DNA of 64,000 bases from Halioglobus sp. (GTDB lineage Bacteria > Pseudomonadota > Gammaproteobacteria > Pseudomonadales > Halieaceae), in contig JBGCFE010000041.1 in NCBI GenBank assembly GCA_045106775.1, forward strand, positions 9,948-73,947. Reading direction: 5' to 3'. This document shows, piece after piece, positions 9,731-64,000 of the stretch; the first letter of the stretch is position 1, and each line of letters opens with the position of its first letter. A program made the position numbers and the translations under genes. Below the pieces are notes generated by a model that was not told the origin of the DNA, did not search any database, and saw nothing but the letters and a program-made list of their open reading frames with translations.

Positions 9731-10627
9731 CTACTTAATGTGCCCCAATATACCGTCGAGCTCATCAAGACTGGTGTAGGACACCACCAACTTTCCCTTC
9801 CCACTGGCCGAGTGCGAAATCTTAACTTTACTGCCTAATTTTCGCGACAGGTCGTCCTGCAGCCTTCTGATGTTGGGGTCCAGCGATTTCTGCGCCGCAT
9901 CAGGCTTAGCCGGTGTCTGTAATGAGCGAACCAGTGCTTCTGTCTGACGCACCGTCAATTCTTTGCCTACCACTGTCTGGGCTGCTCGCGACTGGTCGGC
10001 GCTCGATAGTGCCAGCAATGCTTTAGCGTGGCCCATTTCCAGATCGCCATGCTCCACAAGGCGCATGACATCGGGCTGCAGCGTCATAAGCCTCAGCATG
10101 TTAGCTACCGTCGAGCGTGATTTGCCGACCGCTTTAGCGACTTCTTCCTGAGTTAGCTCAAACTCCTTTTGCAGCCTTTGCAGTGACGCCGCCTCTTCAA
10201 TCGGGTTCAGATCTTCCCGCTGAATATTCTCGATAAGCGCCATCGCAATAGCGGCCTCATCGCTGACATCACGAATGACAACGGGAATACTCTCCAGACC
10301 GGCTTGTTGTGTAGCCCGCCAACGACGCTCTCCGGCGATAATTTCATACTTTTTGTCTGAGATGGGCCGCACGACTATCGGCTGCATCACACCTTGTGCC
10401 CTGATGCTATTTGCTAATTCTTGGAGGGCCTCTGGTTCCATATCACGGCGTGGTTGGTACTTGCCACGCTGTATAACATCGACGGGCAATTCTTTTAGAG
10501 CTTGACCCGATGCAGGTGCAGCCGCTGCTTCTTGGCCGTCGGGCGCCTTGTCCGTAGGCTGCGCATTCGAGCTTGCGCCCAGCAGTGCATTCAGGCCCTT
10601 CCCCAAGCCTCTTTTTTTAGCAGACAT
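9731..10627 (-). CDS. parB: Chromosome partitioning protein ParB
   Basis: KKRGLGKGLNALL ParA-activating peptide, YEIIAGERRWRA, ENIQREDLNPIEEA, HTH KSRSTVANMLRL. Confidence 0.97.
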   Translation of the reverse strand: MSAKKRGLGKGLNALLGASSNAQPTDKAPDGQEAAAAPASGQALKELPVDVIQRGKYQPRRDMEPEALQELANSIRAQGVMQPIVVRPISDKKYEIIAGERRWRATQQAGLESIPVVIRDVSDEAAIAMALIENIQREDLNPIEEAASLQRLQKEFELTQEEVAKAVGKSRSTVANMLRLMTLQPDVMRLVEHGDLEMGHAKALLALSSADQSRAAQTVVGKELTVRQTEALVRSLQTPAKPDAAQKSLDPNIRRLQDDLSRKLGSKVKISHSASGKGKLVVSYTSLDELDGILGHIK

Positions 10628-60207: not shown

Positions 60208-62991
60208 ATGGCTTCTACTGCTAACGTTTCGGATAAGACTGCAGGGCAGGGTTCGAAGAATGCCCCCATCGTTCTCGTCGATGGTTCCTCCTATGTTTAT
60301 CGTGCCTATCACGCGCTGCCCATGCTCACGACCTCCAGCGGTCAAAATACCGGTGCTGTTCGCGGTGTAATCAGTATGTTGCGCCGTTTGGTGGTGGATT
60401 ATCCAAACAGCCCCATTGCGGTGGTATTCGACGCCAAAGGCAAAACCTTTCGCGACGAGATCTACGATCAGTACAAAGCGCAGCGTCCGCCCATGCCGGA
60501 TGAGCTGCGCGAACAGATCGACCCCATACATGCGATTGTTAAAGCAATGGGGTTGCCTTTTCTCTGTGTGCCCGGCGTTGAAGCTGATGATGTGATTGGG
60601 ACACTCGCGCAACAGGCCAGCGAGCAGGGTAGGGACGTGATTGTTTCAACCGGCGATAAGGATATGGCACAGCTGGTCAACAAGCATGTGACCTTAGTGA
60701 ACACGATGACGGAAACAGTCTTGGATGAGCCGGCTGTAGAAGAAAAATTTGGTGTGCCGCCCAAGCTGATTATAGATTTGTTGGCGTTGATGGGTGACAA
60801 GGTAGATAACATTCCGGGCGTAGCCGGCGTAGGAGAAAAAACAGCATTGGGCCTGTTGCAGGGCATTGGTGGTCTGGACGACATTTATAAAAACCTCGAA
60901 AAAGTGGCAGAGCTTTCTTTTCGCGGTGCAAAAAAAATGGCACCAAAATTGGAGGCGGAAAAAGACAACGCCTACCTTTCTTACGAACTCGCCACCATCA
61001 AGCTCGACGTACCGCTAGAGGTAACGCCAGGATCATTAGAAAATGCTGAGCCGGATACGCAGGCGTTGGTCGATTGGTACACACGATTAGAATTTCGCGC
61101 ATGGCTCGATGATGCACTAGGGCAGGGCGGTTCAGCGGCAACACCAGCTTCGGGGGCCTCACCGGAAAAGCCGCCGGAAGTGGCGGTGAACTACGCCATA
61201 GTCACTGATCAGGCAGAATTCGAAGCTTGGGTAGCTCGGCTGGAATCTGCAGACTTATTTGCTTTCGATACAGAAACTACCAGCCTCAATTACATGGAGG
61301 CGCAAGTGGTGGGTGTGTCTTTCGCTGTTGCACCCGGCGAGGCAGCCTATGTTCCGTTTGGGCACGACTATCTTGGTGCGCCGGAGCAACTAAATCGCGA
61401 TGACGTGCTCGCCAGGTTAAAGCCTTTGCTAGAAGACGAAAACGCAGCGAAGGTAGGACAAAATCTGAAATACGATGCGAATGTGCTCGCCAACCACGAC
61501 ATTACTTTGCGAGGCATTCGTTTCGACACAATGCTGGAGTCGTACGTACTGGATTCAACTGCCACGCGACATGACATGGATAGTCTGGCTTTGAAATACC
61601 TGGGCCGCAAAACAGTTCACTTCGAAGACATCGCTGGCAAAGGCGCCAAACAGTTAACGTTTAACCAGATAAAACTGGAAGAGGCGGGGCCCTATGCCGC
61701 AGAAGATGCCGACATTACATTGAGCTTACATGAGGCGTTGTGGCCGAAGCTGCAAAAGCAGGGTGATTTACCTGCGGTTTTTAGCGAAATAGAGTTGCCA
61801 TTGGTTCCTGTGCTTTCGAAAGTGGAGCGCACTGGCGCTTTGCTTTCCCAGTCGATGTTGCATGCGCAGAGCGCTCAACTGGGTAAGCGGCTTGACGAGT
61901 TGGAAGGGGAGGCCTTTGAGTTAGCAGGCGAAGAGTTTAATCTGGGTTCGCCAAAACAAATTGGCAAAATTCTGTTTGAAAAACTTGAACTGCCTATTAT
62001 CAAAAAAACGCCCAAGGGTGCACCGTCGACGGCAGAAGACGTTCTGGTGGAGCTGGCTTTAGACTATCCGCTACCAAAGTTGTTGCTCGAACATCGCACG
62101 CTTAACAAGCTCAAATCGACTTATACCGATAAGTTGCCAGAAATGGTGAACCCGAAAACGGGGAGGGTGCATACCTCATATCATCAGGCGGTTGCTGCAA
62201 CCGGCCGCTTGTCATCGTCTGATCCTAACCTTCAAAACATTCCGATTCGAACGGAAGAGGGCAGGCGAGTACGCCAGGCGTTTATAGCGCCAGACGGCTA
62301 TCGCATCATGGCGGCGGACTATTCGCAGATAGAGCTGCGCATAATGGCGCACCTATCGCAAGACGATGGTTTGTTGCGTGCTTTCAAAGAAAACCAGGAT
62401 GTACACAAAGCCACCGCGGCAGAAGTGTTTGAGGTGAGTTTAGATCAAGTGTCCGGTGAACAGCGTCGCAAGGCTAAAGCGATTAACTTCGGCTTGATCT
62501 ATGGCATGTCTGCCTTTGGTCTTGCAAAGCAGTTGAACCTAGGCCGCAACGAAGCGCAGCAATATATCGATCGATACTTTGAGCGCTACCCGGGCGTTGC
62601 CGATTATATGGATTCGACCCGGGCGTTGGCGAAAGAGCAGGGCTATGTAGAAACACTGTTTGGCCGTCGCCTTTACCTTCCGGAAATAAATGCGAGCAAT
62701 AAAATGCGAGTGCAGGCAGCAGAGCGCACCGCGATTAACGCACCGATGCAGGGCACAGCTGCAGATATTATTAAAAAAGCCATGCTGGCGGTAAGCGACT
62801 GGTTGAACACCGGCGCAGCAGACGCCCGTATGATTATGCAAGTACACGACGAACTCGTGTTTGAAGTGGCAACAGGCCAGGCACAGCAGATAGCGGATGA
62901 CGTTTGTCAATTAATGTCAGGCGCGGCGCAGTTATCCGTGCCTCTGTTGGTCGAAGCCGGTATTGGTGATAACTGGGATGAGGCGCACTAG
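60208..62991 (+). CDS. polA: DNA polymerase I
   Basis: VLVDGSSYVYRAYH (5'-3' exo); FDTET (3'-5' exo); DYSQIELR; KAINFGLIYG; QVHDEL. Start set at ATG 60208. Confidence 0.98.
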   Translation: MASTANVSDKTAGQGSKNAPIVLVDGSSYVYRAYHALPMLTTSSGQNTGAVRGVISMLRRLVVDYPNSPIAVVFDAKGKTFRDEIYDQYKAQRPPMPDELREQIDPIHAIVKAMGLPFLCVPGVEADDVIGTLAQQASEQGRDVIVSTGDKDMAQLVNKHVTLVNTMTETVLDEPAVEEKFGVPPKLIIDLLALMGDKVDNIPGVAGVGEKTALGLLQGIGGLDDIYKNLEKVAELSFRGAKKMAPKLEAEKDNAYLSYELATIKLDVPLEVTPGSLENAEPDTQALVDWYTRLEFRAWLDDALGQGGSAATPASGASPEKPPEVAVNYAIVTDQAEFEAWVARLESADLFAFDTETTSLNYMEAQVVGVSFAVAPGEAAYVPFGHDYLGAPEQLNRDDVLARLKPLLEDENAAKVGQNLKYDANVLANHDITLRGIRFDTMLESYVLDSTATRHDMDSLALKYLGRKTVHFEDIAGKGAKQLTFNQIKLEEAGPYAAEDADITLSLHEALWPKLQKQGDLPAVFSEIELPLVPVLSKVERTGALLSQSMLHAQSAQLGKRLDELEGEAFELAGEEFNLGSPKQIGKILFEKLELPIIKKTPKGAPSTAEDVLVELALDYPLPKLLLEHRTLNKLKSTYTDKLPEMVNPKTGRVHTSYHQAVAATGRLSSSDPNLQNIPIRTEEGRRVRQAFIAPDGYRIMAADYSQIELRIMAHLSQDDGLLRAFKENQDVHKATAAEVFEVSLDQVSGEQRRKAKAINFGLIYGMSAFGLAKQLNLGRNEAQQYIDRYFERYPGVADYMDSTRALAKEQGYVETLFGRRLYLPEINASNKMRVQAAERTAINAPMQGTAADIIKKAMLAVSDWLNTGAADARMIMQVHDELVFEVATGQAQQIADDVCQLMSGAAQLSVPLLVEAGIGDNWDEAH

Positions 62992-63033: not shown

Positions 63034-63060
63034 GAACTTTTGGCAGGTAGCCCAGTCTTA
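63034..63060 (+). promoter_or_regulatory. sigmaE/AlgU-type promoter
   Basis: GAACTT-16 nt-TCTTA; the established consensus is GAACTT-N16/17-TCTNA. Confidence 0.75.
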
Positions 63061-63066
63061 TATTGC

Positions 63067-63189
63067 GTAGTGAGAGCTACATCCCTAGGTGGCTTATCTT
63101 CATGGGCCACTGCGAGTACGTCTCTATCTCCAGGAGACATTTTTGAATGCCCCGGCCGTTTTCCCTAGAAACTGCCGGGGTCTTTTTTT
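63067..63189 (+). ncRNA. Candidate sRNA at the Spot 42 / ErsA position downstream of polA
   Basis: Promoter immediately upstream, three short hairpins, strong terminator with U tract; no credible ORF. Confidence 0.65.
63150..63189 (+). terminator. Intrinsic terminator
   Basis: CCCCGGC...GCCGGGG stem followed by TCTTTTTTT. Confidence 0.85.
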
Positions 63190-63219
63190 CTCTGCTTTAT
63201 ATTTCTCCGCGCCGTTCCA

Positions 63220-63292
63220 GGTTTGGTTCGTTAGGCGGTTACCAGTCGCTCCACGGGATTCGCTTGGTGGTAACCGCCTAACGAACCAAACC
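63220..63292. repeat. Hairpin 1: perfect 25-bp inverted repeat with 23-nt loop
   Basis: GGTTTGGTTCGTTAGGCGGTTACCA (63220-63244) / TGGTAACCGCCTAACGAACCAAACC (63268-63292). Confidence 0.95.
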
Positions 63293-63342
63293 CTGATATC
63301 GAAGTACGTGCAAATCTGATGTAAAACACAAACCGAAGAAAG

Positions 63343-63358
63343 ACTGCCCGTAGGCAGT
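63343..63358. repeat. Small hairpin between the two long hairpins
   Basis: ACTGCC-CGTA-GGCAGT; on the minus strand the loop is c(UACG)g, a UNCG tetraloop. Confidence 0.7.
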
Positions 63359-63374
63359 GCTCCGCAGCGAGGCG

Positions 63375-63441
63375 CCGGCGCGTGAGACGGTGATCACCAA
63401 GCGAATCCCGTGGAGCGACTGATCACCGTCTCACGTGTCGG
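63375..63441. repeat. Hairpin 2: perfect 16-bp inverted repeat (22 bp with G.U on + strand) with 23-nt loop complementary to the hairpin 1 loop
   Basis: CGTGAGACGGTGATCA (63381-63396) / TGATCACCGTCTCACG (63420-63435); loop CCAAGCGAATCCCGTGGAGCGAC. Confidence 0.95.
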
Positions 63442-63501
63442 AGCCTAGAGTTCACTACCACCTCTGGGCCCTATTCACGCGTAAGTAATGAAAGCTTATG
63501 C

Positions 63502-64000
63502 CTAGCTAGAATCGTCGTCAGCATAAACACTATCATCCGTCAGCCACCGATCCAGCACCGAAATAAGCGCCGGGTGCCCATCATGCTTAAGCGCAGAAAA
63601 TAACTGCGCCGTGGCCATGCCCTCAAACTGCTCTAGCGCCTTTTCAACCTTCAGTAGCGTGCTCTTAGCCGGCCCACGCTTCAGCTTGTCTGCTTTTGTG
63701 AGCAAAATATGCACCGGCATTGAAGCGGCCATCGCCCAGCCCAGCATTTGGGTATCGAAGGGCTGCAGTGGGTGGCGGACGTCCATCAGCAGAACCAGGC
63801 CCCGCAGGCTCTCGCGCCGCTGCAGATAGTTCTCGAGTTGTTTGGTCCACTCTTCTTTGACCGCCATGGGTACTTTAGCAAATCCGTAGCCGGGTAAATC
63901 AACCAACCGCTGGTTTTGGGAGAGTTCGAAGAAGTTGATCAGCTGCGTGCGGCCTGGTGTTTTCGAGGTCTTAGCGAGCTTCTTATTGTTGGTTAAGCTA
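63502..64000 (-). CDS. engB: Ribosome biogenesis GTP-binding protein YihA/EngB, 3' part (starts beyond window end)
   Basis: Frame stays open to the window edge: [17 protein letters not shown]...VDLPGYG...LTKADKL. Confidence 0.95.

Follow-up and report, generated by a model that had tools for sequence, protein, structure and literature searches.

Between polA (60208-62991) and engB (stop codon at 63502-63504, minus strand) of Halioglobus sp. (GenBank assembly GCA_045106775.1, contig JBGCFE010000041.1, forward-strand positions 9,948 to 73,947), a conserved small RNA (sRNA)-like gene (63034-63190, plus strand) is followed by two long hairpins (63220-63446). The 64,000 nucleotides (nt) analyzed are referred to here as the window, and coordinates at this locus are window positions. 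A first-pass annotation had read the hairpin pair as a structured noncoding RNA (ncRNA) able to toggle between kissing loops and one long duplex, or as a pair of single-stranded hairpin sites for a trans-acting enzyme. [quoted passage not shown]

The twin hairpins at polA-engB

Hairpin 1 (63220-63292; 94.2 bits with the covariance model; the folding strand favored in the family, with loop CCAAGC..., is the minus strand) has two 25-nt arms (63220-63244 and 63268-63292) that are 100% complementary, giving the perfect 25-bp stem already noted, around a 23-nt loop at 63245-63267 (GTCGCTCCACGGGATTCGCTTGG on the plus strand, CCAAGCGAATCCCGTGGAGCGAC on the minus strand). Hairpin 2 (63370-63446; 90.4 bits; favored strand, plus) is an inverted copy of hairpin 1, with 27-nt arms (63370-63396 and 63420-63446; 89% complementary, 24/27 Watson-Crick) set 23 nt apart. 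Counted from the loop on the plus strand, 16 perfect pairs, a G.U, one pair, a second G.U, and three pairs make up the 22 originally described, and 26/27 positions pair when wobbles are included. Its loop (63397-63419) is, as the first-pass annotation had stated, the exact reverse complement of loop 1, an identity that reaches 27 nt once the closing bases are counted. The window has exactly two copies of the 23-mer GTCGCTCCACGGGATTCGCTTGG (63245-63267, plus; 63397-63419, minus), and the earlier remark that no other copy is present there holds at ≤3 mismatches (0.01 expected). The hairpins are homologous along their stems as well (55-nt inverted repeat, 85% identity), and four stem differences near the loop are each compensated within their own hairpin.

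The 77-nt spacer between the modules (63293-63369) has no similarity to the spacers of other subfamilies and holds the small tetraloop hairpin seen before (63343-63358; ACTGCC-CGTA-GGCAGT, 4-nt loop). On the minus strand, this hairpin followed by CTTTCTTCGG / CUUUCUUCGG forms a terminator-like site for engB transcripts and could terminate engB transcription. RNA folding of 63200-63470 against shuffles gave z scores of -8.4 (plus) and -7.2 (minus), and DNA folding gave z scores of -9.7 and -9.8 for hairpin 1 and of -7.0 and -4.6 for hairpin 2, which folds at -31.0 kcal/mol on the plus strand versus -26.5 on the minus strand. No sigma-70-like promoter was found in or around the module, neither stem, taken as a guide, matched anything else in the window, and ARAGORN called no tRNA or tmRNA. 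Rfam 15 returned no family at the gathering threshold for the region, only microRNA (miRNA)-precursor models (32 bits vs 117) that score because of their generic hairpin shape. A TCC/GGA mini-stem inside the loop was rejected, as the two central loop bases vary freely across copies.

The window PolA is 91% identical to that of an uncultured relative and ~80% identical to that of Halioglobus japonicus, which places the window in the Halieaceae. Related loci, fetched from metagenome-assembled genomes (MAGs), metagenome contigs, and relatives, are labeled L001 to L145. The polA-engB spacers of relatives, from which the first-pass annotation had proposed to build a covariance model, differ in the hairpin module. 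It is absent from L135 (84% PolA identity) and L134 (86%); L133 (88%) retains a remnant of the hairpin 1 arm only, L132 (89%) has the hairpin 2 equivalent only, and in L131 (91%) the 5' arm of hairpin 1 is joined through the loop to the 3' arm of hairpin 2, a chimera whose arms do not pair. This distribution makes the module an insertion confined to the window's clade, now being eroded by deletions. By comparison, the sRNA-like gene, with its strong terminator (63147-63190), is kept nearly identical after polA in 5/5 relatives (L131 to L135), and the terminator forms the left limit of the insertion; the gene itself lies outside the element. The gene has promoter-like boxes (GAACTTTT-N16-AGTCTTA) with an RpoE-type look, a body of ~120 nt, and three hairpins; it has no Rfam match above noise and presumably occupies the same position as spf and ErsA in Escherichia coli and Pseudomonas.

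A dispersed family with a near-invariant loop and covarying stems

The repeated unit (~79 nt) is a ~26-bp stem, variable but strictly complementary, that closes an almost invariant 23-nt loop (GTCGCTCCACG-NN-ATTCGCTTGG). Copies are spread over >130 loci, both in Halieaceae MAGs and in metagenomes from sediment, estuary, and soil. The many dispersed copies that the first-pass annotation had associated with a repetitive extragenic palindromic (REP) or MITE class do exist, although no gene for a REP-associated tyrosine transposase (RAYT) or of an insertion sequence was found beside them. In a scan of one genome per species, the exact loop 23-mer, a search also proposed there, was present at 10 further loci (Halioglobus, Luminiphilus, other Halieaceae MAGs, and one "Lysobacterales" MAG), each in a ~26-bp stem of different sequence, while the degenerate loop pattern TCGCTCCACGNNATTCGCTTG matched at least 120 metagenome loci from sediment, estuary, and soil samples. 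Viral contigs gave no match to the exact loop, the degenerate loop, or the terminal repeat (five matches to a shorter core, all without hairpins, were taken as chance), and blastn of a complete element gave none in plasmids. Across all fetched loci, 185 copies (169 distinct) were found; GTCGCTCCACGATATTCGCTTGG is the commonest loop (69 copies), the GG variant of the window is a minority (12 copies), and only the two central bases vary freely.

In a covariance-model alignment of 141 distinct copies, 92% of cells were paired, 25/26 stem pairs had changed on both sides, and the covariation score was 0.79, versus 0.19 for shuffles and 0.11 to 0.18 when the partner column was slid. Such compensatory variation of the stem is incompatible with coding. 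At the stem foot, the copies read AGG...CC(G)G. The loop is common to subfamilies whose tails, spacers, and stems are unalignable, and it is better conserved than the terminal repeats described below. Eight related loci searched against Rfam yielded nothing save a 6S RNA and a tRNA elsewhere in them, and the loop sequence, in DNA or RNA letters, was in no paper in the literature full text. Within Rfam 15 and that literature (ISfinder and other repeat databases lying outside this scope), the family seems undescribed.

At most loci, a second hairpin lies 79 to 278 nt away (loop to loop; mode, 147 to 149) in inverted orientation, and about half of loci carry a single hairpin. The order is polar, with the GTCGC-loop hairpin preceding the CCAAGC-loop hairpin 53 times and the other three orders occurring 5, 4, and 2 times; on either strand, the pair reads GTCGC-loop hairpin, ~25- to 220-nt spacer, CCAAGC-loop hairpin. 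Loop complementarity is largely a consequence of this inverted arrangement of two copies of a single unit and is no peculiarity of polA-engB. Twin partners differ in stem type, and both types recur in the paralogous modules of a given MAG (L001 resembles L002; L003, L006, and L009 are mutually alike). Conservation in a fixed orientation extends, in the best-sampled subfamily, to the 92-nt spacer and to the sequences flanking the hairpins, and that spacer yielded no conserved promoter or structure. A Halioglobus MAG subfamily has, as its spacer, a long hairpin that resembles a bidirectional terminator (AAAAAGTGGGGTCAGATAAGAC...GTCTTATCTGACCCCACTTTTT; L001, 6180-6290; L002, 3690-3830).

Partner loops are identical in 20/50 twins and nonidentical in the other 30, and whole subfamilies retain three to five loop differences between partners. 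The central dinucleotide is nevertheless matched in 30/50 twins versus 11.8 expected (0/10,000 shuffles); the matches fall into seven different states, and some of these twins differ at other loop positions. At polA-engB, both window loops read GG..TTGG, and the surviving loops of L131 and L132 both read TG..TTTG. Mismatches also persist: three paralogues in MAG 5NakV-04 retain AT/GG, one subfamily retains AT/GC, and the subfamily of L046, L050, L058, L110, and L122 retains stable mismatches. The matched dinucleotides fit a functional need for matching as well as homogenization of the inverted copies by gene conversion or template switching.

Folding is strand specific. Stem mismatches on the GTCGC strand comprise 249 A.C versus 44 G.U; on the opposite strand (loop CCAAGCGAAUNNCGUGGAGCGAC), the A.C become wobble pairs, and this CCAAGC-loop strand is the more stable in 139/163 copies, by a mean of 5.3 kcal/mol (P = 5e-21). 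Twin partners have opposite favored strands, both directed 5' to 3' outward from the element, and no one transcript therefore contains the two hairpins in their favored form. A C-to-T deamination bias on the favored strand was judged an unlikely cause of the wobble asymmetry, because the unpaired tail of that strand is C-rich. Among RNA runs, none was listed for the window. Hairpin cores of a related element occur in metatranscriptome contigs, which are strandless and could reflect pooled multicopy DNA or DNA carry-over. The top of the right-type hairpin of L079 (2700-2790; runs X12, X14, and X20) reached 55 to 131 word depth, compared with ~4 for the flanking gene and 10 to 27 for the left-type hairpin, differences that pooling of near-identical copies or DNA carry-over could explain.

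Several peculiarities of individual copies were recorded. A 15-nt loop insert (CGGAGTGCCGGACCA, a 4-bp mini-hairpin) lies between GTCGCTCC and ACG in three different organisms (L009, 1613-1725; L027, 5983-6095; L063, 448-560), always in the partner hairpin of a twin; a folded single strand would accommodate such an insert more readily than would a bipartite duplex binding site. Microsatellite-like runs of variable length (CCAAACC, CCCAAA, CCCTGAG, etc.) directly outside the hairpin foot (L054, from 196; L041, from 2070; L130; L053, 1800+; L081, 8944+) suggest replication slippage beside hairpins. The 3' arm of the right hairpin with its flank (..CACTTTCCCGCCCGGGACCGCTAGACTGA..) is present as two to four tandem partial copies in L012 (2400-2530), L124 (1620-1700), L061, L069, and L100. 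Downstream of an EF-G-like gene, L008 (327-821) and L108 (237-802) have three to four hairpin units arrayed at a period of ~110 to 130 nt, accompanied by one unit in the opposite orientation. A 6S RNA gene in L003 (4024-4203; 103 bits), ~3.4 kb from a twin module, is apparently coincidental.

Element ends, insertion sites, and transposase searches

Intact copies are 320 to 440 bp long, noncoding, and without a conserved open reading frame, and their twin core spans ~230 to 260 bp; complete elements measured 320 to 425 bp. Outside each hairpin, intact members carry a ~95-nt tail that ends in an inverted repeat (consensus, GGTTCATCGCACATTACCGGGG; tip, GGYTCWTCGC), as in L043 (GGTTTATCGCACATTACCGGGG and GGTTCTTCGCACATTAGCGGGG), L047, L086, L088, and L098. 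A repeat tip was present ≤200 nt from the hairpin in 39/131 cases versus 8 to 16 in controls. At their termini, the elements lie against runs of A or T, often those in which a neighbor's intrinsic terminator ends, and the window insertion likewise lies directly after a terminator T-run. Its left junction (63191-63219; 29 nt from the T-run of the upstream sRNA terminator to the base of hairpin 1) and right junction (63447-63501; 55 nt from hairpin 2 to the engB stop codon) hold no canonical tail or terminal repeat, alignment scores being no better than those of shuffles; a supposed TATAAA tail remnant beside the window copy was dropped, its alignment scores also being at shuffle level. Membership of the window copy in the family rests on its hairpin modules, their arrangement, and the comparison with relatives, and the copy, having lost recognizable ends, is probably an immobile relic.

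One junction, between a major facilitator superfamily (MFS) gene and a carbamoyltransferase gene, was resolved across five loci, with filled and empty alleles in relatives that are 96 to 100% identical. In L043, ATAAAATA and GTAAAATA border a 409-bp element (2211-2619). At this same site, L143 (96% protein identity) retains a deletion derivative with one hairpin, its right flank unchanged and its left flank nearly so, whereas the site in L142 (98%), gATAAAAATTAacgc, is empty and contains ATAAAAAT(TA) once. In L144 and L145 (88%), the MFS and carbamoyltransferase genes overlap (2001-2004) with no element, and a second site downstream is also empty. This is an insertion polymorphism with an 8-bp duplication. 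Among other end pairs, L047 (A-run) and L088 (T-run) are suggestive of duplication and L098 is not.

The neighboring genes are unrelated housekeeping genes (short-chain dehydrogenase/reductase, ABC-F, EF-G, P450, TonB receptors, acyl-CoA dehydrogenase, DbpA, and others), with no recurring family found around the copies. Crude gene calls gave 30 convergent, 25 tandem, and 5 divergent flanking pairs, which places the element mainly at gene 3' ends; single hairpins had no orientation preference relative to tandem genes (7 vs 6). One tail carries a perfect TATAAT reading outward, and ends with this box face a gene 5' end in 10/19 cases versus 23/96 for other ends (P = 0.02, with the same crude calls). 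The insertion in L043 split the operon of the carbamoyltransferase gene, and its outward TATAAT, directed into that gene, may replace the lost operon transcription.

The repeat tips of L047 are GGCTCTTCGC / GGTTCTTCGCGGTT (consensus, GGTTCATCGC). ISArsp7, of the ISL3 family, has the left inverted repeat GGCTCTTCGCGGTTGGTGGTGAAT (GGCTCTTCGCGGTT...) and 8-bp direct repeats (PMC6305408, Table 3); the tip GGCTCTTCGC matches its inverted repeat at 10/10 positions in the right end of L047 and at 13/14 in the left end. The family resembles this ISL3 example in its terminal repeat tip and in the 8-bp duplication at the one cleanly resolved site, and differs from it in having no transposase gene inside or near the copies. 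The likeness draws on one published example, ISArsp7; the inverted repeat of ISPpu12, which also belongs to ISL3, is different (GGGTATACGG...). A tblastn search with the ISPpu12 TnpA of pWW0 gave no match near the copies, no terminal-repeat pairs 0.9 to 3.5 kb apart enclosing a transposase were found in the fetched loci, and E. coli RayT (tblastn) returned only noise (E ≥ 1.4) in 876 kb around ~130 loci (flanks up to ~10 kb).

Interpretation and significance

Several known systems of paired hairpins invite comparison. Bacterial interspersed mosaic elements (BIMEs) and REP doublets (REPINs) are, like the family, extragenic inverted palindrome pairs with an oriented linker and compensatory change, and their palindromes are thought to act as single-stranded hairpins. 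REPs, unlike these copies, are 20 to 40 nt long, stem conserved, equipped with a GTAG-type box, linked to RAYTs, and without terminal repeats or duplications; none of these properties holds here. Rhizobium-specific intergenic mosaic elements (RIMEs), which we take to be intergenic mosaic repeats around two large palindromes in different phylum-level hosts, have to our knowledge no sequence relation to the family, which resembles BIMEs and RIMEs solely in being an oriented palindrome pair. Integron attC sites, which have conserved R''/L''-L'/R' boxes at the stem base, a variable centre, and direct arrays beside cassettes, were ruled out: the invariant centre and variable stem found here are the opposite pattern, the pairs are inverted, and there are no cassette arrays.

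The closest parallel is with bacterial MITEs, such as the Correia elements of Neisseria and the enterobacterial repetitive intergenic consensus (ERIC) sequences (reviewed in PMC10969869). Like them, the family is small and noncoding, with terminal inverted repeats in intact members, target-site duplication at the one cleanly resolved site, AT-rich intergenic targets, stable stem-loops in transcripts or strands, outward promoter-like boxes, and presence/absence polymorphism in close relatives. Intact members show most of the features by which MITEs are recognized, and the window copy lacks those of the ends. Unlike MITEs, the family folds as two separate internal ~79-nt hairpins and not by end-to-end pairing, its 23-nt loops outdo the ends in conservation and are common to subfamilies with unrelated tails and spacers, and its folding is strand specific at each end, with an apparently low copy number per genome. 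If the twin hairpins are such a mobile repeat, copies would have been spread in trans by an ISL3-type DDE transposase, as the inverted-repeat tip match and the 8-bp duplication suggest. Each hairpin would act single-stranded, as RNA or DNA, on the outward 5'-to-3' strand, and the loop would be a sequence-specific contact for a trans-acting factor needed in propagation, a role that would account for its higher conservation relative to the ends. The likely residual effect of the window copy would be structural, through its hairpins and the terminator-like site at the engB 3' end.

A number of observations weigh against a mobile repeat of MITE type. A recognizable repeat tip lies within 200 nt in only ~30% of hairpins, a clean empty/filled comparison with an 8-bp duplication is available at one site only, and in the window copy neither terminal repeat, tail, nor target duplication is recognizable. 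Searches of ~880 kb around the copies, of plasmids, and of viral contigs revealed no autonomous partner or transposase, the tip match to ISArsp7 being the sole link to one. Paralogues within one genome are 15 to 25% diverged and copy number per genome looks low, giving no sign of recent bursts. Two features, the higher conservation of the internal loop than of the ends and the co-variation of partner loops, are also not explained by a plain MITE model.

Other explanations draw on the same observations. A structured ncRNA whose loops form a kissing complex, or which switches to a single long duplex, would suit the complementary window loops, the excess of matched central dinucleotides (including those of the window and of L131 and L132), and the hairpin cores in metatranscriptome contigs; we consider it very unlikely, as it sits poorly with the nonidentical loops of 30/50 twins and the stably mismatched subfamily and 5NakV-04 paralogues, the single hairpin at about half of loci, the loss or breakage of the module at the same locus in relatives of 88 to 91% PolA identity, the opposite favored strands of partners, the bidirectional terminator between hairpins in some spacers, and the lack of a promoter-like site at the window module and of an Rfam family, while gene conversion or template switching would also account for the matched dinucleotides. 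The toggle proposed in the first-pass annotation gives way to inverted copies of a dispersed unit, with loops identical in 20/50 twins and hairpins that fold preferentially on opposite strands. Its other proposal, of single-strand hairpin sites for a trans-acting enzyme, gains some indirect support from the strand-specific wobbles, the near-invariant loop, and the dinucleotide co-variation. A REP/BIME/REPIN-type palindrome pair spread by a RAYT transposase (HUH Y1) acting on single-stranded hairpins would be in keeping with extragenic copies that lie mainly at gene 3' ends, inverted pairing across a polar linker, compensatory stem change, and strand-specific folding, and yet seems improbable: the unit is ~79 nt with its conservation in the loop rather than the stem, the stem foot reads AGG...CC(G)G with no GTAG/GTGG box, terminal inverted repeats and an 8-bp duplication are not products of HUH transposition, and the RayT search of 876 kb around the copies was empty. 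An invertible DNA switch, with the 23-bp loops as inverted crossover sites at which a site-specific recombinase flips the intervening segment, is extremely unlikely. In its favor, the two sites are asymmetric, inverted, and 79 to 278 bp apart, with only the two central positions freely variable and tending to match between partners; a flip, however, would swap the inner arms and destroy both hairpins, the arm-swapped state at both sites was seen in none of 200 loops (0/12 loops lacking paired arms), the half-sites lack dyad symmetry, a recurrent recombinase gene is absent from the neighborhood, and the central dinucleotide is mismatched in 20/50 pairs.

A host-selected, possibly exapted RNA element (a 3'-end protector, RNase III site, or insulator with a protein-bound loop), which is compatible with a mobile origin, is a more serious contender, if still on the unlikely side. 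The position at gene 3' ends, the long near-perfect stems that tolerate G.U with almost no A.C on the favored strand, the optional mini-hairpin loop insert in three lineages (typical of structured RNAs), the terminators in some spacers, the depth of hairpin cores in metatranscriptomes (up to 131 vs ~4 flanking), and the TATAAT-bearing ends that face gene 5' ends all agree with it. Against these stand the indifference of single hairpins to the orientation of tandem genes, the arrival of a neighbor's transcript at the favored strand second and often after a terminator, the rapid decay of modules at orthologous loci, spacers of 23 to 36 nt that are too short for dedicated promoters, and metatranscriptome contigs that are strandless and open to DNA carry-over or multicopy pooling. 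The role of the hairpin is much less certain than the relic reading, and within the family we regard a recognition module for mobilization and an RNA-level element as roughly equally probable roles for the hairpin. We give a small chance to a functional core in which the hairpin with its near-invariant loop is a structure-specific recognition site, possibly a strand-exchange or end-pairing site, for a putative trans-acting protein that would work on extruded single-stranded hairpins at both ends and need matched central dinucleotides. If so, the complementary loops would be a real constraint (end synapsis or crossover), atop or independent of the DDE-type ends, and the mode of mobilization would be one not described for bacterial MITEs.

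With the relic of a mobile twin-hairpin repeat as the preferred reading, the polA-engB hairpins are a false lead as a locus-specific riboregulator. They define a widespread, apparently undescribed element family in the Halieaceae and other gammaproteobacteria of sediments, estuaries, and soils, with an unusual architecture of two long covarying hairpins, a near-invariant 23-nt loop, a defined folding strand, and partner loops that change together. This pattern implies a putative trans-acting partner that reads the invariant loop. The family is worth masking in predictions of sRNAs, terminators, and miRNA-like hairpins for these genomes, and its insertions beside terminators and inside operons, maybe with an outward promoter, can rewire the expression of neighboring genes.

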